The notes under the pieces were generated by a model. That model was not told the origin of the DNA. It saw only the letters and a list, made by a program, of their open reading frames with translations, and searched no databases. A stretch of 60,301 bases of DNA, taken from the IMG/VR virus record IMGVR_UViG_3300042520_001556, positions 1 to 60,301 of that record; one strand, written 5' to 3'. Both the position numbers and the translations under genes were made by a program. This DNA is from a virus (Duplodnaviria; Caudoviricetes). Of this stretch, positions 1 to 60,301 are shown piece after piece. Numbering within the stretch: position 1 is the stretch's first letter; every line of letters starts with the position of its first letter.

Positions 1-30
1 TTCTGTGGACGAGCGAGACAATCAATGCTT

Positions 31-133
31 GGGGATGTAGTTCAACGGTAGAACGCGAAATCAAGCCCCGCGACAGCGCGGGGTGTGCTTCCCTTTTCAG
101 GCGTGAATCCCGGTTCGACTCCGGGCATCCCCA
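31..133 (+). tRNA. tRNA-like element with canonical acceptor, D and T arms but an expanded anticodon arm (identity unassignable)
   Basis: Acceptor stem GGGGATG(31-37)/CATCCCC(126-132); D arm GTTC-AACGGTA-GAAC; T arm CCCGG-TTCGACT-CCGGG(109-125); about 30 extra nt between the D and T arms, including hairpin CCCCGCG-ACAG-CGCGGGG(66-83); no encoded CCA. Confidence 0.7.
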
Positions 134-145
134 TTTTTCATCCAC

Positions 146-160
146 AGAACCAGTGTTTCT
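146..160 (-). repeat. attI-like simple site, left copy (AGAACCAGTGTTTCT)
   Basis: Exact 15-bp match to 1690-1704; minus strand reads AGAAAC-ACTG-GTTCT. Confidence 0.6.
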
Positions 161-178
161 CAACGTAAAGGAGTTTGC

Positions 179-472
179 ATGACGCCTTTTGGATTTGTCC
201 TGTCGGTTGCCACGCTGGTCGTTGGACTGCTGCTTGGATACTTCGCATCTCCGGCGACACCGAAGCCTGTACAGGATGACTACGCTGGTTGCCTGATTCA
301 CCCCGAGACAACGCCGCAGGTCAAGTGGGTGAAAATGACGCGGCCTACGAGGGACGCGATTATCGGCATCTACGCGGCCAACATGGACGAGTGCAAGAAG
401 TTCATGGAGGCGAACGACCGCGTTACGACGGGCGAGGCGGCGATACTGTGGCTCATGGAAAAGGCGAAGTGA
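179..472 (+). CDS. Cassette gene A, hypothetical protein with N-terminal transmembrane/signal segment
   Basis: RBS AAGGAG; hydrophobic N-terminus; TGA stop inside the TGAGAAC box. Confidence 0.75.
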   Translation: MTPFGFVLSVATLVVGLLLGYFASPATPKPVQDDYAGCLIHPETTPQVKWVKMTRPTRDAIIGIYAANMDECKKFMEANDRVTTGEAAILWLMEKAK

Positions 473-518
473 GAACGCCAGCGATCAGTGGCTCGTCCGC
501 TGCATCGCGTGGTTAGCC
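470..518 (-). repeat. attC-like site 1
   Basis: Minus strand GGCTAAC-CACGC-GATGCAGC-GG-A...ACTGATC-GCTGGC-GTTCTCA: AAC box, 5-nt spacer, 8-nt L'' with extra base, 7-nt L', 6-nt spacer, GTT. Confidence 0.8.
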
Positions 519-542: not shown

Positions 543-764
543 ATGGCATACAGCGTGGAGCTCAGCCGCAAAATCTACGACGACGATTGCGGGGCTTGCA
601 TCCAAGTCGGCCCAGACAGCGACGGGCTTGGTTGCGTTGAGATTCGTACACCAGACGCCGACAGCGCGGAGCATTTCGGAGACATTCGATTCACCGTGTC
701 GCCGCAGTTGGCGAAGTTGCTTGGCAAGGCACTGATCGACGCGGCAGCGGATGCAGGGGCATAA
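543..764 (+). CDS. Cassette gene B, hypothetical protein
   Basis: RBS upstream of ATG 543; TAA stop inside the TAAC box. Confidence 0.7.
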   Translation: MAYSVELSRKIYDDDCGACIQVGPDSDGLGCVEIRTPDADSAEHFGDIRFTVSPQLAKLLGKALIDAAADAGA

Positions 765-787
765 CACGCAGGATCAGGAGCGGCGAG
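759..787 (-). repeat. Half (degenerate) attC-like site
   Basis: TAAC-ACGCA-GGATCAGGAGCGGCGA shares GGATCAGGAGCGGCGA with site 2, but no clear partner arm or GTT box follows. Confidence 0.6.
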
Positions 788-789
788 AC

Positions 790-1023
790 ATGAGCAAGGT
801 GGACATCTGCGTCCGGCTGCGGCTCGCTCCGGCGCACCTCATCGGCAAAGTAGACGAGGACACCTACTGGGCCTGCCATGAGGCCGCAGACGAGATCGAA
901 CGGCTGCGGCTCACCGACGCGGAGCGGGAGGCGGTGGCGCTGGCGAAGTCTCGTCTCGGGACTTCCGACGGCGACTGGCAGGCGGACGACGTACTTGCTG
1001 CCTTGCTGGAACGGCTAGGCTGA
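790..1023 (+). CDS. Cassette gene C, hypothetical protein (LTDAEREA...LLER module)
   Basis: ATG 790 after AGGAG; stop inside TGAGAAC. Confidence 0.7.
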   Translation: MSKVDICVRLRLAPAHLIGKVDEDTYWACHEAADEIERLRLTDAEREAVALAKSRLGTSDGDWQADDVLAALLERLG

Positions 1024-1110
1024 GAACGACAAGGATCAGGAGCGGCGAACTATGAACACAGACAACACGCAGGGCGGTGCCGAGCCGTCTCCTGCATCCG
1101 CTGGTTCTCA
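1021..1110 (-). repeat. attC-like site 2 (contains RBS and ATG of gene D)
   Basis: TGAGAAC...GGATCAGGAGCGGC(1033-1046) pairs with GCCG-T-CTCCTG-C-ATCC(1084-1099)...GTTCTCA; two extrahelical bases. Confidence 0.85.
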
Positions 1111-1393
1111 CGGGTCGGCATCGCGCTGGAACGGCGTGCCTGTAGCGTGGGCAGCGGTCGTCCAGAACGGCGTGCCGCTGTGTCTGGCGTACCATCGGCA
1201 GGACGCCCAAGGTGCGGTTGTCGGGATGGCGCAGGTCGTCCCGCTCTACCGCTCGCCCACGCTCACCGACGCGGAGCGGGAGGCGTTGAAGAAGGTGCTG
1301 CGGCGAGTGCGAGAAGACTACTTCGCGGGGCGGTTTGCCGACAGTGTGGAGGTCGCCGCCGTGATCGACGGCCTGCTTGAGCGGACAAAGTGA
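1052..1393 (+). CDS. Cassette gene D, hypothetical protein (LTDAEREA...LLER module)
   Basis: ORF starts inside attC site 2; stop inside GTGAGAAC. Confidence 0.75.
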   Translation: MNTDNTQGGAEPSPASAGSHGSASRWNGVPVAWAAVVQNGVPLCLAYHRQDAQGAVVGMAQVVPLYRSPTLTDAEREALKKVLRRVREDYFAGRFADSVEVAAVIDGLLERTK

Positions 1394-1480
1394 GAACGCC
1401 AGCGATCAGCGGCATCGAACACAGGAGACTGACACATGAACGATGATGATGAGGTGTCCGCTGCATCGCGTGGTTCTCAC
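1390..1480 (-). repeat. attC-like site 3 (contains RBS and ATG of gene E)
   Basis: GTGAGAAC...GCGATCAGCGGCATC(1402-1416) pairs with GGTG-T-CCGCTG-C-ATCGC(1453-1469)...GTTCTCAC. Confidence 0.85.
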
Positions 1481-1690
1481 GGGCAGGCGATCACAATGGT
1501 GATCGACGCGGAAATACGGGCGTTGATGCACGGTGCAGTAAGCCTCCGGCTTCACGCCGCCGAGCGAGCGCGCGGACAACAAGAACTAACCGATGCGTCA
1601 GAGATGTCTGACCTGCTTGCGATGGCAAATGTACTAGACGCGATGCGTCGGGAGCGCGAAGCAAAAGTCATGCGGTGGAAGTCAAGATGA
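1436..1690 (+). CDS. Cassette gene E, hypothetical protein
   Basis: RBS AGGAG 1423-1427 inside attC site 3; stop inside TGAGAAC. Confidence 0.7.
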   Translation: MNDDDEVSAASRGSHGQAITMVIDAEIRALMHGAVSLRLHAAERARGQQELTDASEMSDLLAMANVLDAMRREREAKVMRWKSR

Positions 1691-1719
1691 GAACCAGTGT
1701 TTCTGCGGAACGTGATAAC
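1688..1719 (-). repeat. attI-like site, right copy, with an upstream GTTATCA box
   Basis: Minus strand GTTATCA...CCGCAGAAAC-ACTG-G|TTCTCA; closes the array; no attC hairpin. Confidence 0.6.
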
Positions 1720-1808
1720 GCACGGCACTAGATAAAGAGCCTACGGAAGATTGCAGAAAACCGCATGTTGTGTGCAGCGAAACGTATCACTCCTGATACA
1801 CACCGCAA

Positions 1809-6318: not shown

Positions 6319-7244
6319 TGCTTACCCAGGCCATGCCGGCGTTAGCGCAGGCCATGCAGGGCGTGATGCCCCAAATGGCCGTGCGGCGGATGATGCAGGC
6401 GTTGGGCAACTGCAACCAGCCCCTGGAACACCGGGGGCCAGTTGCGATCCGCCCCACTACCAGGACGCCACAGAACGAGCTGGGCCTGGGCGGCGGGCAG
6501 GGCGGCGGAGGCTCTTTCGGGCCAGGCGTGTACAGCGATGGCGGCGTGTGGAATCAAAACCTGATCAACCAGTTCACTGATGTTTCTCAGGTGTTCAACA
6601 ACAACTCCTTCATCGACATCCCCACGTACAACAACTACTTCAACACCCTGAACAACAACTTCGCTGGCGACGAGTTCCTGTTCAACACCAACGCCAACTA
6701 CAACACCAACCTGTTCCCCACCACCATCATCAACGGCGTCATCGGTTCGGATGGCATCAACGGCATCAACGGCTTTAACGGCGTGGATGGCCAGCCCGGC
6801 GTGTCTGGTGCCGCCGGTCTGGCGGGCGCTGCCGGAGCGGACGGAGCCCCAGGCGTGGCTGGGCCGGCGGGCGCGGCTGGTGCGGCGGGCTTGGCTGGTG
6901 CCGCTGGTGCTGCTGGTGCTGCTGGCCCCGCCGGCGCGGCGGGTGTTGCTGGGCTTCCCGGCATTCCCGGCCTGCCCGGCCTGCCCGGGATTGGGGGCGG
7001 CTACGAACTCCGCCAGGTGGACGGCCGCTTCCAGGTAAACCTCGTCCAGAACGTAACCGTGAAGGCGGCCACTGTTTCTGTGGATGTTCCGAAATATCGC
7101 TTTGACGCCGACAGCTGCGAGCTGGTCCCTGACGGCGTGGATACGGTGGAAGAAAACGTCAACGTGCAACTGAACATCGACCGGGGTCCGGAGGTGTTTG
7201 GGCAAATCCTCTACACGCTCAAGCCCAAGGCCGGTTACCCATAG
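6318..7244 (+). CDS. Collagen-like virion (fibre/needle) protein
   Basis: TAATG-coupled start; Asn-rich segment, then about 29 uninterrupted Gly-X-Y triplets (6735-6995). Confidence 0.75.
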   Translation: MLTQAMPALAQAMQGVMPQMAVRRMMQALGNCNQPLEHRGPVAIRPTTRTPQNELGLGGGQGGGGSFGPGVYSDGGVWNQNLINQFTDVSQVFNNNSFIDIPTYNNYFNTLNNNFAGDEFLFNTNANYNTNLFPTTIINGVIGSDGINGINGFNGVDGQPGVSGAAGLAGAAGADGAPGVAGPAGAAGAAGLAGAAGAAGAAGPAGAAGVAGLPGIPGLPGLPGIGGGYELRQVDGRFQVNLVQNVTVKAATVSVDVPKYRFDADSCELVPDGVDTVEENVNVQLNIDRGPEVFGQILYTLKPKAGYP

Positions 7245-7253
7245 CCGCCTTTC

Positions 7254-7268
7254 GGACATTAGTCCGTA
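7254..7268 (+). promoter_or_regulatory. Putative late promoter motif, copy 2
   Basis: GGACATTA-GTCC-GTA running into RBS GGAG; ATG at 7279. Confidence 0.6.
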
Positions 7269-7278
7269 GGAGTACAGC

Positions 7279-8850
7279 ATGCAGATCCGTGAGCGACAAC
7301 TACCCGGTGGCGGCGTCCTCCGGCACATCCATAACCCCAACGCGGCCAATAATGCCGCCGCCCTCCAGGCTGCGCAAATCAACGCCGCTGCGCAGGTGGA
7401 CGCCGCCCGGGCGGCCGCGGCGGGTCAGGCTGAATCGGGAAGAGCCATGGGGGCCGGAAACGCCATGGCTGGCATTGGCCAGGGCTACGGCCAAGGCATT
7501 GCAGGAATTGCTGGTGCCTATGGCAACCTGGGCGGCTCCATGGCCAACGCATCGGGACAGCACTCCGCTGCCCTAGCTGGCCTGGGCGGGGCTACGGCCA
7601 ACAACTACGGGGCCTACGCCGGCTCCATGGGGAGCATCGCCAACGCCCAGGCCAACGAGCGGGCCGCAGCCATGGCCGCCATGGCACAGTCGGAGAGCGC
7701 CCGTCAGCTCGCCGCTGGGAACATCGCCAACCAGGCCCTGTCCTCCTACGGTGCGTTGGGCAACAGCGCCATGAGCGCGTGGCTGGGCAATCAGCAGGCG
7801 TACAACCAGGCCCGAGCCAACATGGGCCAGTCGGCTGCCGCCGCCTTCGGGGCTATGGCGCCGGCTGTGGCGAACGTCAGCGGTGCGGCATCGAACGCCT
7901 TTGGGGCCAATGCTCAAGCGTTGGCGGCGATGCAGGGCTCCAACCAGATGGCCACCTCCCAGCTTGGCCAGTCTCGCAACCAGGCTCTGGCTGGGCTTGG
8001 TGGGTCCATGGCCCAACTGGGTACTGGACTGGGGGGCGCTAGCCAGGTGTCCAATGTCAACCTGGGCTTCGGTGGCTCTGGTGGCGGCGGTGGCGGGTTC
8101 AGGGCCTCCAGTCCTTCGGGTCAGGTGGCCTCTGGATCCTTCAGCGGCTTCGGCGGTGGTGGCGACATGGGTGGCTCGTCCTACCGTGGCCCCGGGCCAG
8201 AGTTTGCTGGGATCGCCAACCGCAGCTTTGCCGGCATGGGCGGCCTTCAGGGAGGCGTGATGGACTCCTCCGTGTTGTCGGACCTGTCGTCTGGCAACGC
8301 CATGGGGATGAACCGTCTTGGACGCAGCTACGACGCGGCCCGCGGCCAGGTAGACGAGGGATACACCAACCTGAACCGCAGCTTTGCTGACACCAACCGA
8401 ATGCTGGATCAGGGGTCGCAGGCGATTGACGCCCAGCACGCCTCGTCCCGCAGCATGCCGATGGACATGTTCCAGAACTCCTTCGGCAACTTCCGCCAAC
8501 TTGCGGGTGACGGGTACGGCCAGTTGATGGGCGGCATGAATCAGTTCTATGGCAACGTCAACGCCAACCGGGCCAACTTCGCCCCCATGGTGAACAACGC
8601 CCGGGATGGATTTTTCTCATCGTCCCGCGACCTCCGCAACCTGGGCGGCCGGATGAGCGGAGACTTCCGTTCCGGCCTCACTCAGGCTGCCGGCGTGGGG
8701 CAGGGCCTTGGGAATCTCACGCAGAGCCTGGGCGGGCTTGGTGGCTTGATGGGCCGGTTCCCGCAGCCAGCCCCGGCTCCGACAGGCGGGGCGTTGTCGG
8801 ATCTGTTCGCCAGTTTTAACCGACCCGCCAGAGGTGCAGGCCGTGGTTAA
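7279..8850 (+). CDS. Gly/Ala/Gln/Asn-rich putative DNA ejection (pilot) protein
   Basis: Low-complexity helical composition; position after the tail genes. Confidence 0.6.
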   Translation: MQIRERQLPGGGVLRHIHNPNAANNAAALQAAQINAAAQVDAARAAAAGQAESGRAMGAGNAMAGIGQGYGQGIAGIAGAYGNLGGSMANASGQHSAALAGLGGATANNYGAYAGSMGSIANAQANERAAAMAAMAQSESARQLAAGNIANQALSSYGALGNSAMSAWLGNQQAYNQARANMGQSAAAAFGAMAPAVANVSGAASNAFGANAQALAAMQGSNQMATSQLGQSRNQALAGLGGSMAQLGTGLGGASQVSNVNLGFGGSGGGGGGFRASSPSGQVASGSFSGFGGGGDMGGSSYRGPGPEFAGIANRSFAGMGGLQGGVMDSSVLSDLSSGNAMGMNRLGRSYDAARGQVDEGYTNLNRSFADTNRMLDQGSQAIDAQHASSRSMPMDMFQNSFGNFRQLAGDGYGQLMGGMNQFYGNVNANRANFAPMVNNARDGFFSSSRDLRNLGGRMSGDFRSGLTQAAGVGQGLGNLTQSLGGLGGLMGRFPQPAPAPTGGALSDLFASFNRPARGAGRG

Positions 8851-16179: not shown

Positions 16180-16524
16180 ATGCCAGGGCCCGCACGCAAA
16201 TACCTGACCGACATCGACACACCCAGCACCTACAAGCAAAGCTACATTCCAGATGCGTACGCGCTGGGGGATCTGCGAGCGCTGCCGGATGAGCCCGACG
16301 ATCATGATAGCGACCGCTACGCCATGCACAGATCCGGCATGCCCCACCGCTCCGGGGAGGTTGGCGATTACGGCCGGCATGATGGAACGCACCTTACCGC
16401 AACAGAGATGGCAGAGCTGCAACGTAGCGGACGGCTGGAGCAGATGATTCGACGCATCCAGCGTGCCCGCGCCGCCAGGGCGGGCGTGGAGCCGAGCTTC
16501 GCGGAAGAAGAGCCGTACTTTTAA
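16180..16524 (+). CDS. Hypothetical protein
   Basis: RBS AAGGAG before ATG 16180. Confidence 0.65.
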   Translation: MPGPARKYLTDIDTPSTYKQSYIPDAYALGDLRALPDEPDDHDSDRYAMHRSGMPHRSGEVGDYGRHDGTHLTATEMAELQRSGRLEQMIRRIQRARAARAGVEPSFAEEEPYF

Positions 16525-17336
16525 AGCACGCTGGGCAACGGCTCGCCGTTGATCCCGCACTCTTCTTCATACAAGAGCTGGTCAACGTAGTGACGCTCTG
16601 CGAGGCCATCGGTACGGTGACCCAGCTTGGCCTTGGGCGACATTCCCTTGACCTTGGCATAGGTCGCACAGCTCTTACGGAGCGTCTTCGTTGACCCGCT
16701 CAGGCCTGCCCGCTCTACGCACGCTGCCACCCACTGCTGGATGGTATTGATCGCAGCGAAGTCACCGAAGATGCGGGGCCGCTTCGGCAGGGCCCTGCAC
16801 GCGGACAACGCCTCGTCGGTAAAAACCGCAACGTGCGGGGTTGACGTTTTGTTTTGCCGCACATAGATTTTGCGGCCGCGAAGTTGATCCCATCGCATGT
16901 CGATGAGGTCGCCGGCGCGGAGGCCTGTGGCGTAAGCCGTGAGGAACCAGGCCTCCAAGAAGGATGCTTTGGAGAGGTCATGGAAACGACCCGGCGTGCG
17001 ACGAGCCGTCTCTACCAGGTGTTTGATTTCCGTGAGCGACCACGCCACGGGAAGCGGCGCCGGCACCTTGACTCGCCGGAAGCGTTCAACTATACAACAG
17101 TTCAGGCCGAGGCGACGAGCTTCGGCCGTGAGGGTTGTGAGCATTCTGCGGTGGTTGGCGACCGTATTGGGCGCAAGGTTGGTCAGGGCTTCGGTGAGGT
17201 AGTCGTCCACCATCTCGGTGGTCATTTCCTCCACCTTCCAGGGGAGCCGCTTGGTGAACACCAAGAGCTGCTCCAAATAGCCGGGTTTGGCCCCAATCCG
17301 GGTGGCGTATCGCTTGGCAAATTCTTGGAGTAACAT
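16521..17336 (-). CDS. Tyrosine recombinase / integrase (short, Xer-like size)
   Basis: AYATGLR...QNKT...KTLRKS...LGH...HY catalytic pattern. Confidence 0.9.
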   Translation of the reverse strand: MLLQEFAKRYATRIGAKPGYLEQLLVFTKRLPWKVEEMTTEMVDDYLTEALTNLAPNTVANHRRMLTTLTAEARRLGLNCCIVERFRRVKVPAPLPVAWSLTEIKHLVETARRTPGRFHDLSKASFLEAWFLTAYATGLRAGDLIDMRWDQLRGRKIYVRQNKTSTPHVAVFTDEALSACRALPKRPRIFGDFAAINTIQQWVAACVERAGLSGSTKTLRKSCATYAKVKGMSPKAKLGHRTDGLAERHYVDQLLYEEECGINGEPLPSVL

Positions 17337-17383
17337 CTTTGCACCCTGACATTCCCGCCAAAATGAGGCGTGTCAAGTGCGTC

Positions 17384-17401
17384 GGGCAGCTAGCTCAGTT
17401 G
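17384..17401 (+). other. tRNA 5'-end fragment, candidate attachment-site core
   Basis: GGGCAGCTAGCTCAGTTG matches the tRNA acceptor-5'/D-arm start; 47 nt from the integrase start; the rest of a tRNA is absent. Confidence 0.45.
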
Positions 17402-17513
17402 AATAGCTGTTCGATGGCACTTTTCACGGCGGCCACTCTGGCCGCAGCGGCCCTGACCTTGTTGGTCATGGGCTTTCCTCAGGCGTCACTGACGTGCTTG
17501 AGGGAGGCCCTTA

Positions 17514-18392
17514 GTGGACACCGCCACTGGTGACTATACGCCCGGCTGCATCCTGTTTCAGGACGGCCATAAGACCCTCCGGAACCAGGCGGAAATCGAC
17601 CGTCTGTACCGGCTGGAAGACGGACACTTCACCCGCTCCTACGTGACCAGCGTCATGGAGTACGGCGGGCTGGGCCAGGAGATGCTGGACAATGGGGAAC
17701 GTCTGTTCAGCGGCAACGCCGCCACCGACTTCGGCACCCTGGTGGACCGGGCCGTGCCTGCGACGATCTGCGGCCATGACCTGGAGAGCCTGTATGCGGT
17801 GGCTCCGGAGGAGGTCCTGTCGAACGGGGCCCGGCGGGGCAAGCCCTACACCGACTGGAAGGAGCAGCTTGGCGACCGGGCCGAGATCTCCGGGCCGGAC
17901 TGGTATCGGCTTACGAAGATCATCGGCAACGTGTGGCGGCACCCCGCCGCCCGGGAGATCCTGGAGGCAACAGAGGACTGCCAGGCATGCTTCCGGTGGA
18001 CTGACGACGCGGGCCACAAGCGAAAGAGCCTCGCAGACGGGGTGACCCCTGCGTTTCTGTGGGACTTCAAGACCACCAGCTCTAGCTGGAAGGATCTGTA
18101 CCGCAGCTGCATGAACTTCGGCTACCTCGTCCAGGACGCCTGGTACGAGGAAGGGGCTGTGGCCTGCGGCTGGGAGCCGCACCGCCTGCGGTTCGTCTTT
18201 GCCCAGAGCCAGAAGCCGTTTGGCGTGCGGGTCTACACGTTCCCGCAGGACCTGATCGAACACGCCAGGGAGCGGGTCCGCGTCACGCTGGACCAGATTG
18301 CCCTGCGGCGAGAGCTGGGGCTGTATCGCAGCCCTGAGGACGAGGAGTGCATGGAACTGGAGTTCCCTGCTTGGACGAGAGGAGGAGAGTGA
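17514..18392 (+). CDS. PD-(D/E)XK exonuclease, RecE/ExoVIII-like (start uncertain)
   Basis: KSLADG...WDFKTT...YLVQDAWY...FVFAQSQKPF; adjacent to ERF and SSB. Confidence 0.8.
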   Translation: MDTATGDYTPGCILFQDGHKTLRNQAEIDRLYRLEDGHFTRSYVTSVMEYGGLGQEMLDNGERLFSGNAATDFGTLVDRAVPATICGHDLESLYAVAPEEVLSNGARRGKPYTDWKEQLGDRAEISGPDWYRLTKIIGNVWRHPAAREILEATEDCQACFRWTDDAGHKRKSLADGVTPAFLWDFKTTSSSWKDLYRSCMNFGYLVQDAWYEEGAVACGWEPHRLRFVFAQSQKPFGVRVYTFPQDLIEHARERVRVTLDQIALRRELGLYRSPEDEECMELEFPAWTRGGE

Positions 18393-19063
18393 TGATTGTT
18401 GACCATGGACTACCCGGGGTGACTTGCTCCCCGGACACGGCTGATTTGGCAAAGGACCTGGCTCTGGCCCAGGCAGAGTTCCCGGCCATCGAAAAGACGG
18501 GCGAGAACAAGTTTGGCAAGTACCACTACCTGACCTATGCCGGCATTTGCGAGAGCCTGGTCAAGCCGTTGACCAAGCATGGCTTTGCACTGCCGCAGAT
18601 CTGCCTGACCAAGGCCGGCGGGGAGTGGCTTGCGGTGGGGACGCTCCGCCACAAAAGCGGGCAGTTCATCACCAGCCTGTGCCCGCTGTACCTGGGCAAG
18701 GAGAAGGACGGTACGCCCAAGGCGGACATGCAGGCCCTGGGCTCCGCCTACACCTACGCCAAGAAGTACTTGCTTCTGGGCCTGGTGGGAGGCTGGGCTG
18801 AGGAGGACGACGACGGTCAGCGGACGATGCCGGCGGCGGCACCCACGGGCGGCCGGCCTGCCGGGAGGGACCGTGGCCTGGAGATCGAACAGGCCGCCAA
18901 GCATGAGATCGACAAGGCCAAGGGCGACGAGGAGATCGCCAAGGTCCTGTCGCTAGTGAAACTCCGGGTCAGCGAGAAGGTCGCCAGCCCGGATGCGTTG
19001 AAGCGTGTCACCGCGTATGCGGATTCCAAGAAGAAGGAGGTTGCTAATGGCAAGTCTGAATAG
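18392..19063 (+). CDS. erf: ERF-family single-strand annealing protein
   Basis: LALAQAEF..IEK..N..Y; H.SGQFI; QALGSAYTYAKKY...EEDDDG. Confidence 0.9.
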   Translation: MIVDHGLPGVTCSPDTADLAKDLALAQAEFPAIEKTGENKFGKYHYLTYAGICESLVKPLTKHGFALPQICLTKAGGEWLAVGTLRHKSGQFITSLCPLYLGKEKDGTPKADMQALGSAYTYAKKYLLLGLVGGWAEEDDDGQRTMPAAAPTGGRPAGRDRGLEIEQAAKHEIDKAKGDEEIAKVLSLVKLRVSEKVASPDALKRVTAYADSKKKEVANGKSE

Positions 19064-19379
19064 CTGTGCGTTCACGGGGAACCTGACCCGTGACGCTGAG
19101 ATGAAGACCATCGGTGAGAACGAAGTGGCCTCGTTCGCCATTGCGGTGAACGGCCGCAAGGACGGGGACGCGATGTTCTTGAACTGCGATCTGTGGAGGC
19201 CGGGTGGCGTCGGTGGCTACCTGACCCGCGGCAAGCAGGTGGCCGTGAGCGGCGAGCTTCGCTGCAAGCGGTACGAGAAGGACGGCCAGAAGAAGGAAAT
19301 CTGGACGTTGGACGTGAAGAACCTGGCCCTGCTTGGCGGGGCACGGGAGCGTGAGGAGGCGGTTGCCACGCCCTTCTAG
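19047..19379 (+). CDS. ssb: Single-stranded DNA-binding protein
   Basis: N...GNLTRDAE, YLTRGKQVAVSGEL, C-terminal PF. Confidence 0.92.
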   Translation: MASLNSCAFTGNLTRDAEMKTIGENEVASFAIAVNGRKDGDAMFLNCDLWRPGGVGGYLTRGKQVAVSGELRCKRYEKDGQKKEIWTLDVKNLALLGGAREREEAVATPF

Positions 19380-28102: not shown

Positions 28103-28934
28103 ATACGCCGAGATGGTCACTGTGGTGGCCAGGTGCTTCGTCCAGAACCGGCCGCCATGGCAAAGGTCTGGACTGATCCCGGAGCTGGAGGGCGAGGGCT
28201 ACCTGGCCCTGTGCCGGGCCGCCCGCACCTACAACCCGGCGCTCCTCCCCTACCCCAAGGCCTACTTCGCCAGGGCCATACTCAACGCCATGCTAAAGAA
28301 CGTCCGCAAGCTGACACGCACACCCGGCGAGAGGGTGGGGATGGACGTGGCCGAGCAGGAGGTGGCCGTCTACGATCAGCGAGACGATTTGGCAGAGGCC
28401 ATCGCAGGCATGGATGAGCGAGACAAGGCGATGGCCATCTGCCGGTTCGTCAGGAAGCGACGGATCGTAGACCTGGCGGCGGAGTTTCAGCTGAATATAC
28501 GCTCAGCATCCCTGGCGTCACGTCGCCTAGCAAGGCAGATCGGGCAACGATTGGGAATCCCAGCCGAGCGGCTTGAGCCAAGTTATGAATCTCTGACAGG
28601 GAGTACCAGACGCCCTTGCCCCGGTCGGTGTGCTTCTTCCCGGGCTTCGTCACCCGCTCCCGCATCAGGGTCCAGCCGATCTGCCGGTAAGAATGGCCCT
28701 CGTCCGCCATCCTCGCCACCCGCTCAGCCAAAGCCCGCTCGTCCAGGCAAGGCACGTACCGAGCATCCCGCCCCTTCCCCTGCTTCAGCCACCCGTAAGG
28801 GCGAGCGCCGCCGTAAGGCCGCCCGTGCTTGCGTAGATAGGCGGCAATCTCCCGGGTCCGCTGGCCGATCATCTCCCGCTCAAACTCAGCGAAAGAAGCG
28901 AGCTGGTGAAAAAACATCCGGCCGGCGGGGGTAG
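28053..28934 (+). CDS. RNA polymerase sigma-70-family factor (group 3-like) with long low-complexity tail
   Basis: ELEGEGYLALCRAARTYNP...YFARAILNAM (region 2); region 4-like HTH near 28450-28540. Confidence 0.8.
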   Translation: MSRRSKLSKKQQQLVIEYAEMVTVVARCFVQNRPPWQRSGLIPELEGEGYLALCRAARTYNPALLPYPKAYFARAILNAMLKNVRKLTRTPGERVGMDVAEQEVAVYDQRDDLAEAIAGMDERDKAMAICRFVRKRRIVDLAAEFQLNIRSASLASRRLARQIGQRLGIPAERLEPSYESLTGSTRRPCPGRCASSRASSPAPASGSSRSAGKNGPRPPSSPPAQPKPARPGKARTEHPAPSPASATRKGERRRKAARACVDRRQSPGSAGRSSPAQTQRKKRAGEKTSGRRG

Positions 28935-29262
28935 CCAGGTCGATCCCCAGGTCCATGATGATGCACCGGATGCCCCTCTCCTGCCAGATGTGAACCGTGG
29001 CAGCCGCATCCCGGACGGAGCGGAAGACACGGTCCACCTTGTTGAACACCAGCGTGTCGCCGGGGTCCATGGAGTCCCACAGGATCCGGCCCTTGGGCCT
29101 GTCACGCAGCGGGATCCTGGCCGTCACGTCCTCGTCTACGAAGATCTCCGCAACTGCCAGGCCCTCCTTGGCCGCCAGGTCTTGGATCTTTTCCCGCTGG
29201 TTCTCAACGCTGTTCTCCTGGTCATCGGTGCTGACCCGCACGTAGCCCCATAGCCTGTTCAA
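28450..29262 (-). CDS. Serine recombinase (resolvase/invertase family)
   Basis: GYVRVSTDDQ, RP.G..L, KVDRVFRS, FAEFEREMIGQRT, PYGW; likely TTG start 29262. Confidence 0.93.
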   Translation of the reverse strand: MNRLWGYVRVSTDDQENSVENQREKIQDLAAKEGLAVAEIFVDEDVTARIPLRDRPKGRILWDSMDPGDTLVFNKVDRVFRSVRDAAATVHIWQERGIRCIIMDLGIDLATPAGRMFFHQLASFAEFEREMIGQRTREIAAYLRKHGRPYGGARPYGWLKQGKGRDARYVPCLDERALAERVARMADEGHSYRQIGWTLMRERVTKPGKKHTDRGKGVWYSLSEIHNLAQAARLGFPIVARSALLGDVTPGMLSVYSAETPPPGLRSVAS

Positions 29263-30242
29263 TGCCGCCCCCTTTCCGATACCCAGAAGATGAAGAACAA
29301 AACCGAACATCCGATCAGCACGTCAAGCATCGTTGTCCTCCAGCAGCCGCTTCGCCTGCTCGTCGGTTGCCAGGCCAAGGTCACGCATGTGCTGGACGGC
29401 GTCACGCACACCCTGGTCAGTGACCTCCTTGGACTGCGGCACGTACCTGGCCGGCTGCCAGAAGTTGGATAGCACGCTCCACCCTTCTGGGATGGCGGTG
29501 TAGGGAAACGGGTAGTGATCAGCGGCCTCGTCGTCCAGCATTTCCCACAGCGCCTCCTGTGTCGCAGGCCTGTCCTCCAGCGGGCCGCGGGGGACGAACG
29601 CCCCATACTCCCAGGCGACCGGGATATCCATCAGCCGTAGTCCTTGGTGTGGATCTCCGGCCCTTGCAAGGATCAGATACATGTAACTCATTTGGTCCCC
29701 CTTACCCACCATCTACTCCGCCGCAGGAAGTCACGCGCCGCCCGCTTCATCGACCGCTTCGTCGCCCGGTCGTCCGGGCTCATGCCACGCAGCACACTGA
29801 TGGCCGACTCGCTGAGCATGGTATTCCAGCAGGCATGCACAGCCTCCAGCCATACGACCGTCAGCCCTGCCAGCACGGAGTTGCTCAGGCCACCGTTGAT
29901 GTCCTGGTTTCTTCGATGCTGGTGAGCGTACAGATCATGCACATGGGACCGCAGCGCGTCTGCCACGTCCATGGCGGCCTGATGCGGACACGTACCGGCA
30001 TCCACCTTATCAAAGTCCATCGGCACCTCCTCTTGGGAACCAGTCTACCAACTCAGTGGGGCAGGACCTGATCCTGCTCCACCCTCCGCAACGTCCGCAA
30101 CACCATCTCCCCGCGCGTCGCCTCCAGCATGGCGTAGTCATCCTGTTCTTCACGCCAGCTGCCCTCCTCATACTCTGTCAGCTCCCTCTCCACGCACCTG
30201 ATGAGGTACGCCAGCTCCTGGGCTGTCAGTACCAGGGTTGCC

Positions 30243-58812: not shown

Positions 58813-59135
58813 TCGAAATCACCCGCTTCCAAGAGACGGTCACTGTCACGGCGGCCAGCTCTGCCGCCACGTCAAGCCCCCGCTTCAGTTTCCAGCACAT
58901 GGCCGGGGCGGGCGTTCTGATCGGCAACACGGGCGGTGCCACGCAGATTGCCTGGCACGGTGCCTCAGAGCATGAGGCGACCCCCCTCCAGATCTTCTCC
59001 GATGGCTCCGCGGTGACCACGGCCGTCACGGTGGGTGCCCACCCCGTGCCGGACGCCTGCTTCTCATTCCCGTACGTGGTGCCCGTCATTGCCGGCGGGA
59101 CCAGCTGCCAGATGACGGTTGTGGCCAAGGGCTGA
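58809..59135 (+). CDS. Small beta-rich virion protein
   Basis: ATGA coupling; Thr/Val/Ala-rich. Confidence 0.65.
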   Translation: MIEITRFQETVTVTAASSAATSSPRFSFQHMAGAGVLIGNTGGATQIAWHGASEHEATPLQIFSDGSAVTTAVTVGAHPVPDACFSFPYVVPVIAGGTSCQMTVVAKG

Positions 59136-59174
59136 CCCCTCCTTCGTCACATCACCACTCTTGCGACATTCACC

Positions 59175-59978
59175 ATGCCGATGAATCCGAGACTATTACG
59201 CCCGCTGGCAAAGGGTAGAACTCTCTATTTCAACGGCGCGGTCGATAGCGACTGGGCCACGCTCGGCAACTGGTGGACGAGCGGTGCGTTCACCACGCAG
59301 GCGTCTGCCCTGCCGACTAGCGGCGACAGCGTTGTTCTCAGTGCAACGTGCGGCACTAACAGCGGCAGTGCGCCGACCGTTGTGAACTTTACGTTAAATG
59401 ACCCTGATTACTACGCATTCTATCTCTTCGTTGCAATCACCGTCACCGGCAACGCGACGTTCAACGACGGTTCGTACAACTACGGCACCGTCACCGGCGA
59501 CGCCACGTTTAACGACAGTTCGAACAACAGCGGCACCGTCTCCGGCGACGCCACATTTAACGACAGTTCGTACAACGACGGCACCGTCAACGGGAACGCG
59601 ACGTTCAACGACAGTTCGAACAACAACTACGGCACCGTCTCCGGAGACGCCACGTTTAATGACACATCGTACAACTACGCCGGCACCGTCACCGGCGACG
59701 CCACATTTAACCACAGTTCAAACAACACCGGCGGCACCGTCTCCGGAGACGCCACGTTCAACGACAGTGCGTGGAACAACTACGGCACCGTCACCGGCGA
59801 CGCCACGTTCAACGACAGTTCGTACAACAGCGGCACCGTCTCCGGAAACGCGACGTTCAACGACTTGTCTGTCAACCTCACTGGGGTCGTCGCTGGCGAC
59901 GCCACGTTCACCGGCTCTGCCTGCAACGACGGCGGCACGGCTGGCACGTTCGTCCCCAACCCACCGCCGTCCTGCTAA
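59175..59978 (+). CDS. Beta-helix-like repeat protein, putative tail fibre / adhesin
   Basis: Ten 16-17 aa repeats TV(T/S)G(D/N)ATFNDSSxNxG; N-terminal MPMNPRLLRP. Confidence 0.75.
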   Translation: MPMNPRLLRPLAKGRTLYFNGAVDSDWATLGNWWTSGAFTTQASALPTSGDSVVLSATCGTNSGSAPTVVNFTLNDPDYYAFYLFVAITVTGNATFNDGSYNYGTVTGDATFNDSSNNSGTVSGDATFNDSSYNDGTVNGNATFNDSSNNNYGTVSGDATFNDTSYNYAGTVTGDATFNHSSNNTGGTVSGDATFNDSAWNNYGTVTGDATFNDSSYNSGTVSGNATFNDLSVNLTGVVAGDATFTGSACNDGGTAGTFVPNPPPSC

Positions 59979-59992
59979 TAGGAGATATCACA

Positions 59993-60298
59993 ATGCAACT
60001 TCCGCAACCCGTTACGATCCAGCCGCCGACCATCACTCGCAGCACGGGCGAGGTTCGCGTCCAGAAGCCGGTCACGCTCACGGAACTGGACATCACCATC
60101 ATTGACAACGCCAAGCGGAAGTCCTGCGTGGCGAGGATTCGCCCCTGTCCGCAGCCCGTCACGCTCTGGAGCGGCGCTGCCTACGACGCGGCGGGCGACT
60201 ACACGCAGGCGCAGGTTGAGGCGAAGGTGCTGGAGGCGATTGGGCCTGACGTTAAGGCCGGGCTGGAGGCGTTGTTTGTGCCTCCGGCGCGGCGTTAG
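59993..60298 (+). CDS. Hypothetical protein, possible fibre chaperone
   Basis: AGGAG RBS; follows the repeat protein. Confidence 0.65.
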   Translation: MQLPQPVTIQPPTITRSTGEVRVQKPVTLTELDITIIDNAKRKSCVARIRPCPQPVTLWSGAAYDAAGDYTQAQVEAKVLEAIGPDVKAGLEALFVPPARR

Positions 60299-60301
60299 AC
60301 G

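Follow-up and report, generated by a model that had tools for sequence, protein, structure and literature searches.

A probable integron-type gene-cassette array in a phage genome whose attC hairpins appear to supply translation starts

Introduction

Integron cassettes are usually pictured as promoterless genes, each followed by a non-coding attC recombination site. Hairpins of other kinds also lie beside or within genes: repeated stem-loops border small phage genes in the PeSL shuffling cassettes of T4-like phages, and the in-frame palindromic elements of Rickettsia are palindromic repeats that become translated. Here we analyse an array of hairpins and small genes at positions 1-1720 of IMG/VR virus record IMGVR_UViG_3300042520_001556 (Duplodnaviria; Caudoviricetes), all 60,301 bases of which constitute the stretch under study (hereafter the window). 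The first 1.7 kb of the window hold a tRNA gene and five small plus-strand genes, A to E, among which lie three intact hairpins, S1 to S3, and one decayed copy. We consider it likely that this is an integron-type cassette array, whose hairpins belong to an attC family of Planctomycetota (Pirellulales and relatives), which ends in an attI-like site and whose cassettes would be moved by an integron integrase (IntI) of the host, the phage having none of its own.

An attC carries AAC and GTT at its foot, an unpaired central spacer, one or more extrahelical bases and a variable terminal loop; GTTRRRY is the consensus of its R' box, but with just three nucleotides conserved it is no requirement (PMC5371416). 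Clusters of two or more attC sites lacking an integrase are termed CALINs (PMC4889954). Such clusters, and even whole integrons, occur in phages, where 17 CALINs in canonical orientation or with mixed directions have been described and phage attCs were found to recombine with IntI1 (Qi et al., 2023, PMC9892861). As regards translation, the ORF-11/ORF-18 region of attI1 (ORF, open reading frame) is a recombination site whose Shine-Dalgarno (SD) sequence and ATG aid the translation of cassettes, and short ORFs are known inside attCs, and termination-reinitiation has been proposed (PMC8876359); attC hairpins in mRNA, in turn, hinder ribosomes (PMC8876359; PMC11511950). Finally, cassettes bounded by attI remnants (delta-attI) are described from mobile integrons (Gonzales Machuca et al., 2026, PMC12901181).

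The locus described here resembles the attC sites of sedentary chromosomal integrons (PMC5371416) in its AAC/GTT hairpins with spacer, extrahelical base and variable loop, in R-box halves that pair across the cassette, and in the homology of its sites to those beside IntI in Planctomycetota. It departs from the classical arrangement in having the gene on the opposite strand, 3' of the attC, an SD and an ATG within the loop, a coding 3' arm, site lengths that separate sharply into 40-43 and 79-84 nt, and C as the extrahelical base, and in lacking GTTRRRY. With the CALINs of Qi et al. (PMC9892861) it has in common attC sites without intI in phages, DNA methyltransferase cassettes and a proposed exchange with bacterial integrons; it adds an attI-like site and attCs that double as translation starts, and the terms Planctomycetes, start codon, ribosome binding and antisense were absent from the available text of that paper when it was searched. 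Whereas ORF-11 and ORF-18 (PMC8876359) are short helper ORFs coupled to the next gene, the phage site holds the predicted start of the cassette protein itself. Like the delta-attI cassettes, in which an attI remnant replaces attC, the tRNA unit and the gene A unit of the window follow an attI-like core of 10-11 nt; in that study (PMC12901181) the cassettes come from clinical class 1 and 2 integrons and were tested with IntI1, whereas our case is made from sequence.

Results

The hairpins are homologous to attC sites beside host integron integrases

Hairpins S1, S2 and S3 follow genes A, C and D, respectively (Table 1). The left-arm 18-mer has 3 matches at up to three mismatches compared to 0.06 expected, and the right-arm 18-mer has 2 compared to 0.12. 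The folding energy of S3 is significant both as RNA (z -3.18; 1/200 shuffles) and as DNA (z -3.26 and -3.48 for the two strands), but the stronger evidence is that of covariation and covariance-model matches. An 18-nt right-arm pattern was scanned over one genome per prokaryote species; many contigs matched, and most of those with true sites were titled as metagenome-assembled genomes (MAGs) of Planctomycetota. A structural scan of these host contigs gave 89 sites, some of them in arrays. An alignment (A1) and a covariance model (R1) were then built solely from 31 sites in Planctomycetota chromosomal arrays. In A1, 96.8% of cells are paired compared to 92.8% in shuffled versions (0/500 shuffles reach the observed value), and 25 cells show double changes compared to 6.9. 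Applied to the window, R1 recognized all three intact hairpins on the plus strand, S3 with 48.7 bits (E = 5.6e-15), S1 with 45.8 (E = 6e-14) and S2 with 40.2 (E = 6.4e-12). The rest of the 60 kb contained a single weak match (28379-28455, 13.1 bits, E = 0.048), which abuts the 3' end of the serine recombinase gene.

On the host side, the NCBIfam model for the integron integrase (TIGR02249) scored above its curated cut-off in 9 of 13 site-bearing genomes and in 0 of 14 control genomes. In genomes G026, G027 and G028, intI adjoins the array on its 3' side (in the orientation of the sites): G027 has a five-site array, then the last cassette, an AAC, about 140 nt and a 378-aa IntI, and the other two are laid out likewise. 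In the G027 contig L433 (G027:C19, 6021-7890), intI (6754-7890, minus strand) is co-directional with the cassette genes and upstream of them, which is the 'inverted integrase' arrangement reported for Planctomycetes; the last cassette of G027 encodes a ParE-like toxin pair.

By contrast, no IntI (TIGR02249) was detected in any of 20 site-bearing viral records including the window, 7 of which are at least 90% complete, so that movement of the phage cassettes would depend on a host IntI. The tyrosine recombinase encoded in the window scores far below the NCBIfam cut-offs for IntI and Xer and lies 15 kb from the array; its homologues, with 24-30% identity, are found in 11 of 25 site-bearing records and in none of them next to an array, and we dropped the idea that it acts on these sites as unsupported. 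With three intact sites within 1 kb, no IntI and thus no intI beside the array, the phage locus is a CALIN rather than a complete integron.

Viral sites share one architecture and pair across cassettes

Of 130 distinct matches to a 15-nt right-arm pattern in viral contigs, 70 are accompanied by a suitably spaced left arm, in many cases with several such sites on one contig; the other 60 have no left arm and were set aside, as was a half-site 14-mer scan that returned mostly chance matches. A structural pattern (AAC, spacer, GAT plus six bases, then the six partner bases plus N plus ATC, spacer, GTT) found 179 sites, 136 of them distinct, compared to 9 in reversed-sequence controls. Site lengths fall into two sharp classes, 40-43 nt (with four sites at 48) and 79-84 nt; the shortest loop has 5 nt and the longest about 46, and the long class comprises at least eight unrelated loop families. 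The six-base inner stem exists in 25 versions among 183 elements (e.g. CAGCGG/CCGCTG, CAGGAG/CTCCTG, CAACAG/CTGTTG and GAATGG/CCATTC), 181 of which have a bulged C on the 3' arm, and the spacer after AAC is freely variable while its partner is kept. The elements thus show the imperfect AAC ... GTT hairpin, unpaired spacer, extrahelical base and variable loop of an attC, the base being C and not the classical G.

The bases flanking the hairpins carry a further signature. Within a viral site, the Watson-Crick run outside AAC and GTT averages 1.95 (125 sites), compared to 1.87 for random pairs, whereas across a cassette, from the GTT flank of a site to the AAC flank of its successor, it averages 4.23 in 69 viral cassettes; here and in the other counts, cassettes are distinct in sequence, not phylogenetically independent. 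With shuffled partners the viral mean falls to 1.90, and the maximum of 2000 shuffles was 2.55. The viral flank pairs are of 14 different 5-nt types, and in bacterial contigs the run is 3.41 compared to 1.01 (32 cassettes, 12 types). Since the flanks pair across the cassette and not within the site, they bear the signature of a circular cassette, the two ends of which rebuild one R box; an in-place RNA hairpin or homologous exchange inside the arms would not give such pairing at the level of the cassette. Nor do the flanks resemble those of a miniature inverted-repeat transposable element or a REP-like palindrome, as they are complementary across cassettes and not the direct repeats of a target-site duplication. 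In the window, the flanks of cassette D pair (GTT|CTCAC ... GTGAG|AAC), as do those of the tRNA unit (TTCTGTGGA ... TCCACAGAA); those of cassette B pair with a one-base slip, and cassette C has lost its 3' arm. Together with the homology to host sites beside IntI, this R-box complementarity bears out the sequence-only reading in calling the hairpins attC sites.

Phage units are reversed and appear to be bounded at AA|C

In the orientation of the sites, 8 of 20 minus-strand ORFs in host arrays have Pfam matches (including ParE, PemK, DUF2442 and DUF4160), compared to none of the 22 on the plus strand. An ORF of at least 50 codons on the plus strand ends at the AAC side of 102 of 114 viral sites. 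With host genes on one strand and viral genes on the other, the phage coding strand is equivalent to the bottom strand of attC, the one that in integrons IntI recombines as a folded single strand, and the extrahelical base accordingly stands on the 3' arm of that coding strand. Host cassettes keep the classical order of gene then attC, whereas the phage attC lies 5' of its gene, and the sites are therefore indeed reversed relative to the phage genes, as had been supposed from the letters.

A cassette end and AAC followed by a common sequence, CAGTGTTT(C/A)T.., and lacking a right arm, recurs in 12 viral contexts. Ten of these close arrays, as at the array end of the window, and two, the window copy at 148 and a copy in contig L071, are internal junctions. 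In host genomes, the stretch that separates intI from the last cassette contains AAC and a similar sequence; one host copy (L427), 230 nt from the 3' end of intI, is identical to a phage copy (L230) at 17 of 20 bases. AAC is kept in 4/4 host attI candidates and a nearby GTT in 2/4, and a (C)AGTRTTT core is present in three. An attI-like site on the 3' side, where hosts have intI, and the constancy of AAC point to crossover at AA|C, by which each unit would consist of C, attC, gene, stop and AA. The unit boundaries proposed earlier for D (1027-1396) and E (1397-1693) fall exactly at such AA|C points.

The tRNA gene can be placed in the same scheme, as a cassette-like unit with a minimal site, since it lies between inverted repeats and copies of the 10-nt attI-like core. 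In L071, a cassette end, AAC and this 10-nt core precede the sequence of window 1-10, and 15 nt of the junction before gene A recur exactly at 1690-1704. Around its anticodon arm the tRNA gene is longer than the Rfam model, with 44 nt instead of 13, and ARAGORN reported no tRNA in the window.

Crossover might instead occur at G|TT of the right arm, as it does on the top strand of classical integrons; attC and leader would then be part of the upstream cassette and pass, in frame, to whichever gene follows. The complementarity of the flanks fits this equally well, in-frame swaps would need the single reading frame that is seen across loop families (see below), the same downstream gene families stand behind different loop families, and a GTT occurs 4 nt after AAC in the viral attI-like core. 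We nevertheless regard crossover at G|TT as improbable: 10 of the 12 viral contexts end in AAC and attI-like sequence with no right arm, on the side where hosts have intI; of the host attI candidates, all have the AAC and two have no GTT nearby; Pfam-matched host cassette genes lie between each site and the attI side; and cassette E keeps its attC, with compensatory stem changes, though both of its neighbours differ between phages.

Cassettes recur in unrelated phages

Cassette D is 89% identical over 228 nt to a cassette (L120/L227) of a 96-kb phage whose terminase is not detectably related to that of the window. Cassette E together with its attC is 84% identical over 294 nt to one in L278/L180. 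L278 is a 92%-complete phage without a detectable relative of the window's terminase, and in it the stem changes are compensated, both neighbours are different and homology stops at the next AAC. This recurrence supports the boundaries of the unit and the suggestion that attC and gene E travel together.

Another possibility is that the hairpins are relic attCs for which no integrase remains, their arms serving as short homologies for the phage's own ERF, SSB and PDDEXK recombination functions, and as portable translation starts, much like the linkers of T4-like phages. The phage does encode all three proteins, none of the 20 viral records has an IntI, hybrid sites exist (e.g. in L185, where the left arm of one family is joined to another), and the attC core is not perfectly linked to the gene on either side. 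Exchange by homology within the arms, however, would not maintain flank pairing across cassettes, which all 14 viral flank types maintain, and the attI-like end, the bulged C and the covariation of the stem are all kept, such that we hold relic sites to be about as improbable as crossover at G|TT. The PeSL cassettes and the Rickettsia elements likewise differ from the present sites in having no AAC/GTT core, no flank pairing at cassette level and no homologues beside intI, and it is the flank pairing that argues against a PeSL-type linker for homologous recombination, in which cassettes would have an early promoter and a terminator stem-loop in common.

Long sites contain candidate start signals in a fixed frame

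In S2, the SD (AGGAG, 1038-1042) lies within the 5' arm, the ATG of gene D (1052) in the loop, and the 3' arm reads as the codons PASAGS; in S3, both the SD (AGGAG, 1423-1427) and the ATG of gene E (1436) are in the loop and the 3' arm reads SAASRGS. The positions of these signals inside the hairpins, and the related peptides PSPASAGSHG (D) and VSAASRGSHG (E) translated from the 3' arms, had been noted before and check out, as does the finding that AGGAG forms part of the 5' arm both in S2 and in the half site. The latter, the decayed attC, has its AGGAG at 776-780, followed by the ATG of gene C at 790, and is a direct repeat with 1032-1058; its fold is not significant (z -0.61) and it is not matched by R1.

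The arrangement generalizes. A loop ATG is present in 59 of 71 distinct long viral sites, and in 55 of the 59 it is in one frame (GCA TCG CKT GGT TCT, i.e. ASxGS) that is open through the arm, so that the putative use of the loop ATG as gene start, suggested from two genes, extends to 55 of 71 long sites. Fifty-one of these 55 frames are open for at least 50 codons, and 53 have an SD-like 4-mer at a distance of 5-9 nt. The 55 predicted proteins have in common a leader of acidic residues followed by S/P-x-A/P-S-x-G-S, and the 51 bodies behind it that reach 30 aa make up 18 blastp families. The unpaired spacer encodes a freely variable residue (R, L, A, G, D, T or V), and the leader therefore looks like a by-product of the DNA site. 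In the DNA methyltransferase cassettes L055, L099 and L209 the conserved N-terminal motifs begin right after the site, and the conservation of the D and E proteins begins at the site boundary. Among compact sites, 31 of 32 are followed within 120 nt by a start that opens at least 40 codons, as for gene B. A long site would thus supply the start and the first 13-20 codons of its cassette's own protein.

If the loop ATGs were unused, the true starts would lie 3' of the GTT box and the shared peptides would be untranslated by-products. The free variation of the spacer residue, which gives no sign of selection on the leader at the protein level, and an in-frame ATG 21 codons into gene E are compatible with this. 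It is nonetheless harder to sustain than either of the alternatives above, given that 55 of 59 loop ATGs occupy one of three possible frames and 53 of these 55 have an SD at 5-9 nt, that methyltransferase motifs directly follow the site, with no ATG, GTG or TTG read between the site and motif I of L209, and that conservation of D and E starts where the site ends.

Predicted SD masking is confined to one family of sites

Partition-function folding of 53 sites gave a probability of SD pairing of at least 0.7 in 11 sites and of 0.3 or less in 30. In the CAGGAG family, in which the SD is the stem, the mean is 0.92. For S2 the value is 1.0 in the free RNA and drops to 0.17 if a ribosome terminating upstream is mimicked by blocking the 12-15 nt that follow its stop codon; for S3 it is 0.39 free compared to 0.43 with a ribosome at the stop. 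The sequence-only reading had proposed that the mRNA hairpin hides the ribosome-binding site until a ribosome terminating at the upstream stop opens it: in silico, this holds for S2 and the CAGGAG family, whereas it does not hold for S3 and is not supported as a general rule. Translational coupling by unmasking of the SD is accordingly plausible, in these folding models, for gene D and its attC family.

A purely RNA-level element (a processing site, translational operator or terminator) kept for expression would suit the co-orientation of sites and genes, the stop at one foot with a start inside or just after, and the buried SD of the CAGGAG family, but it is hardly credible given that the outer stem is kept across cassettes and not in situ (1.95 compared to 1.87 at random), that in host arrays next to intI these sites are antisense to the genes, and that the SD is unpaired in 30 of 53 sites.

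The phage and the neighbourhood of the array

The window is an entire IMG/VR record, linear and with a CheckV completeness of 100, and encodes a terminase, portal, major head protein and helicase. A search of INPHARED for close relatives among deposited phages gave two short, weak matches only. Pfam had no match for 12 proteins of the array and the neighbouring structural genes, and PHROG none for genes A-E. Genes A, C, D and E each terminate in TGA-G-AAC (Table 1). Homologues of B in L230, L184 and L203 carry along the same right flank and 5' untranslated region. The products of C and D are members of a small-protein family (.. LTDAEREA .. LLER[TL][KG] stop) that is frequent in the hypervariable locus of L004, L007, L008 and L009, is present also in relatives without attC sites, and is the largest family among attC-led proteins (22/51).

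In 39 loci related via the neighbouring 378-aa structural gene, the flanks of the array region are common and the middle is hypervariable. Among 33 loci from the phage's own relatives, attC sites occur in L007 and L071 only; a literal GAGAAC...GTTCTC scan of the 39 related loci found no pattern, and a fuzzy arm scan of related loci found L007 only. Contig L071 matches window 59114-60301 and 1-850 at 100% identity and has a further 822 bases between the two parts, which hold two small genes and another AAC with attI-like core. The ends of the window being joined in L071, the array is internal to the genome and the contig ends are adjacent; the window may lack part of the array, in a region that is polymorphic or incompletely assembled.

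Just 5' of the array lies the gene for a 267-aa protein with about ten tandem repeats (GDATFNDSS.N..GTV), which has weak beta-flower/bactofilin-like Pfam matches and of which relatives have variable copies. The motif TAGATAAAGAG is kept just 3' of the variable small-gene region, in the window and at L004 223, L008 3870 and L009 5100, and could serve the structural genes as a promoter or as a signal of another kind. A near-perfect inverted repeat of 13-14 bp (GCGATCCCGGCGGG ... CCCGCCGGGATCGC, loop GATAAAGCGG) precedes genes of the C/D family in relatives (L071 reverse strand, about 1680-1745; L008, 3205-3270), and similar strings occur 5' of the arrays in L178 and L234. The window also has a cluster of recombination genes (16521-19379) and a serine recombinase gene, and the phage is probably temperate, with recombination genes of its own.

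Table 1. Positions of the array elements and other features in the window
Feature	Position	Strand	Remarks
5' R-box half of tRNA unit	1-10	+	TTCTGTGGA..; pairs with 141-149 (inverted repeat, 9-10 bp)
tRNA gene	31-133	+	Rfam RF00005, 48.2 bits
Junction before gene A	141-160	+	Cassette end TCCACAG, AAC (148-150) and 10-nt attI-like core (151-160); truncated-attI type
Gene A	179-472	+	97 aa; TGA-G-AAC end; no Pfam or PHROG match
attC S1	470-518	+	AAC 474-476 to GTT 512-514; 41 nt, 5-nt loop; compact class, non-coding
Gene B	543-764	+	73 aa; own SD AAGGAG at 531-536, 3' of compact attC S1
Decayed attC	763-790	+	5' arm, AAC 763-765 .. GGATCAGGAGCGGCGA, intact; 3' arm degenerate
Gene C	790-1023	+	77 aa; paralogue of D (LTDAEREA .. 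LLER)
attC S2	1021-1110	+	AAC 1025-1027 to GTT 1104-1106; 82 nt; long class
Gene D	1052-1393	+	113 aa; cassette D, 1027-1396
attC S3	1391-1479	+	AAC 1395-1397 to GTT 1473-1475; 81 nt; long class
Gene E	1436-1690	+	84 aa; cassette E, 1397-1693
Array end	1688-1719	+	Stop TGA, G, AAC (1692-1694), attI-like CAGTGTTTCTGCGGAACGTGATAAC
Motif 3' of array	1728-1738		TAGATAAAGAG
Tyrosine recombinase gene	16521-17336	-	Small
PDDEXK gene	17514-18392		
ERF gene	18347-19063		
SSB gene	19005-19379		
Serine recombinase gene	28450-29310	-	
Repeat-protein gene	59175-59978		267 aa

Discussion

Homology to sites beside host integrases, pairing of flanks across cassettes and an attI-like end together make it likely that the array is of the integron type and that its hairpins are attC sites of a Planctomycetota family. 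Several observations weigh against this reading. The R' box is GTTCTCA in S2 and S3 and GTTAGCC in S1, not GTTRRRY, although host sites beside IntI depart from that consensus as well (e.g. GTTCGGC and GTTCTGA); the extrahelical base is a C where the classical attC has a conserved G, and the compact class is shorter than the 57-141 bp given for attC, in both cases as described in PMC5371416. The RNA folds of S2 (z -1.26; 23/200) and S1 (z -0.45; 57/200) do not go beyond those of shuffled sequences. The assignment to hosts is taken from MAG titles, the orientation of host cassettes rests on eight Pfam matches in two loci, and the count of host ORF ends is indecisive (16 compared to 15 of 55, then 7 compared to 11 of 44). 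The flank test by itself does not separate crossover at AA|C from crossover at G|TT. Linkage of site to gene is weak: the attC cores are at least 0.9 identical in 44% of 25 downstream-homologous pairs, compared to 17% of 6 upstream-homologous pairs and 9% of random ones, the pairs not being independent, and linkage by whole cassette bodies comprises 3 pairs only. Lastly, the array is sporadic among the phage's own relatives.

In the mechanism that we propose for the integron-type array, a host IntI would move cassettes during infection or lysogeny, each cassette being ordered on the phage coding strand as 5'-C, attC, gene, stop, AA-3', and AA|C would be the point of crossover. In a long attC (79-84 nt), the variable loop would provide SD and ATG, and the 3' arm with the GTT box would be read as codons in a fixed frame. 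Because the start signal lies inside the attC, gene and start would move together, and the proteins would receive a leader encoded by the site. A compact attC (40-43 nt) would come without a start, its genes bringing their own SD and ATG after the GTT box, and the stop of the preceding gene would form part of the second R-box half (TGA-G-AA|C). In S2 and the CAGGAG family, a ribosome finishing the upstream gene may free the buried SD; elsewhere the SD would mostly be unpaired in the loop. Recombination by host IntI, the exact point of crossover, the use of the loop ATGs and translational coupling are what we infer from these data.

A bolder picture, the chances of which we would put a little short of even, is that phages of Planctomycetota maintain a mirror-image, integrase-less integron. 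Host IntI would shuffle antisense units that are silent in host arrays and expressed in phage operons, the attC loop would be a portable start module for at least 18 protein families, and the two size classes would be sites without and with that module. A literature search that left most subscription journals outside its reach found no attC with the SD and ATG of the cassette gene in its loop and a translated arm, and likewise no phage arrays antisense to host cassettes.

A single DNA element would here have three roles, as recombination hairpin, ribosome-binding region and protein-coding sequence, and it would offer a concrete case in which the structure of a recombination site shapes protein N-termini, one that extends over many viral contigs and no fewer than 18 protein families. 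The finding broadens what is known of integron parts in phages and provides a simple sequence signature by which more of them might be found. It suggests that phages can reshuffle accessory genes, including methyltransferases, using the integrase of the host, and, if the reading is true, phage and host hold separate, oppositely oriented pools of cassettes on one attC family.

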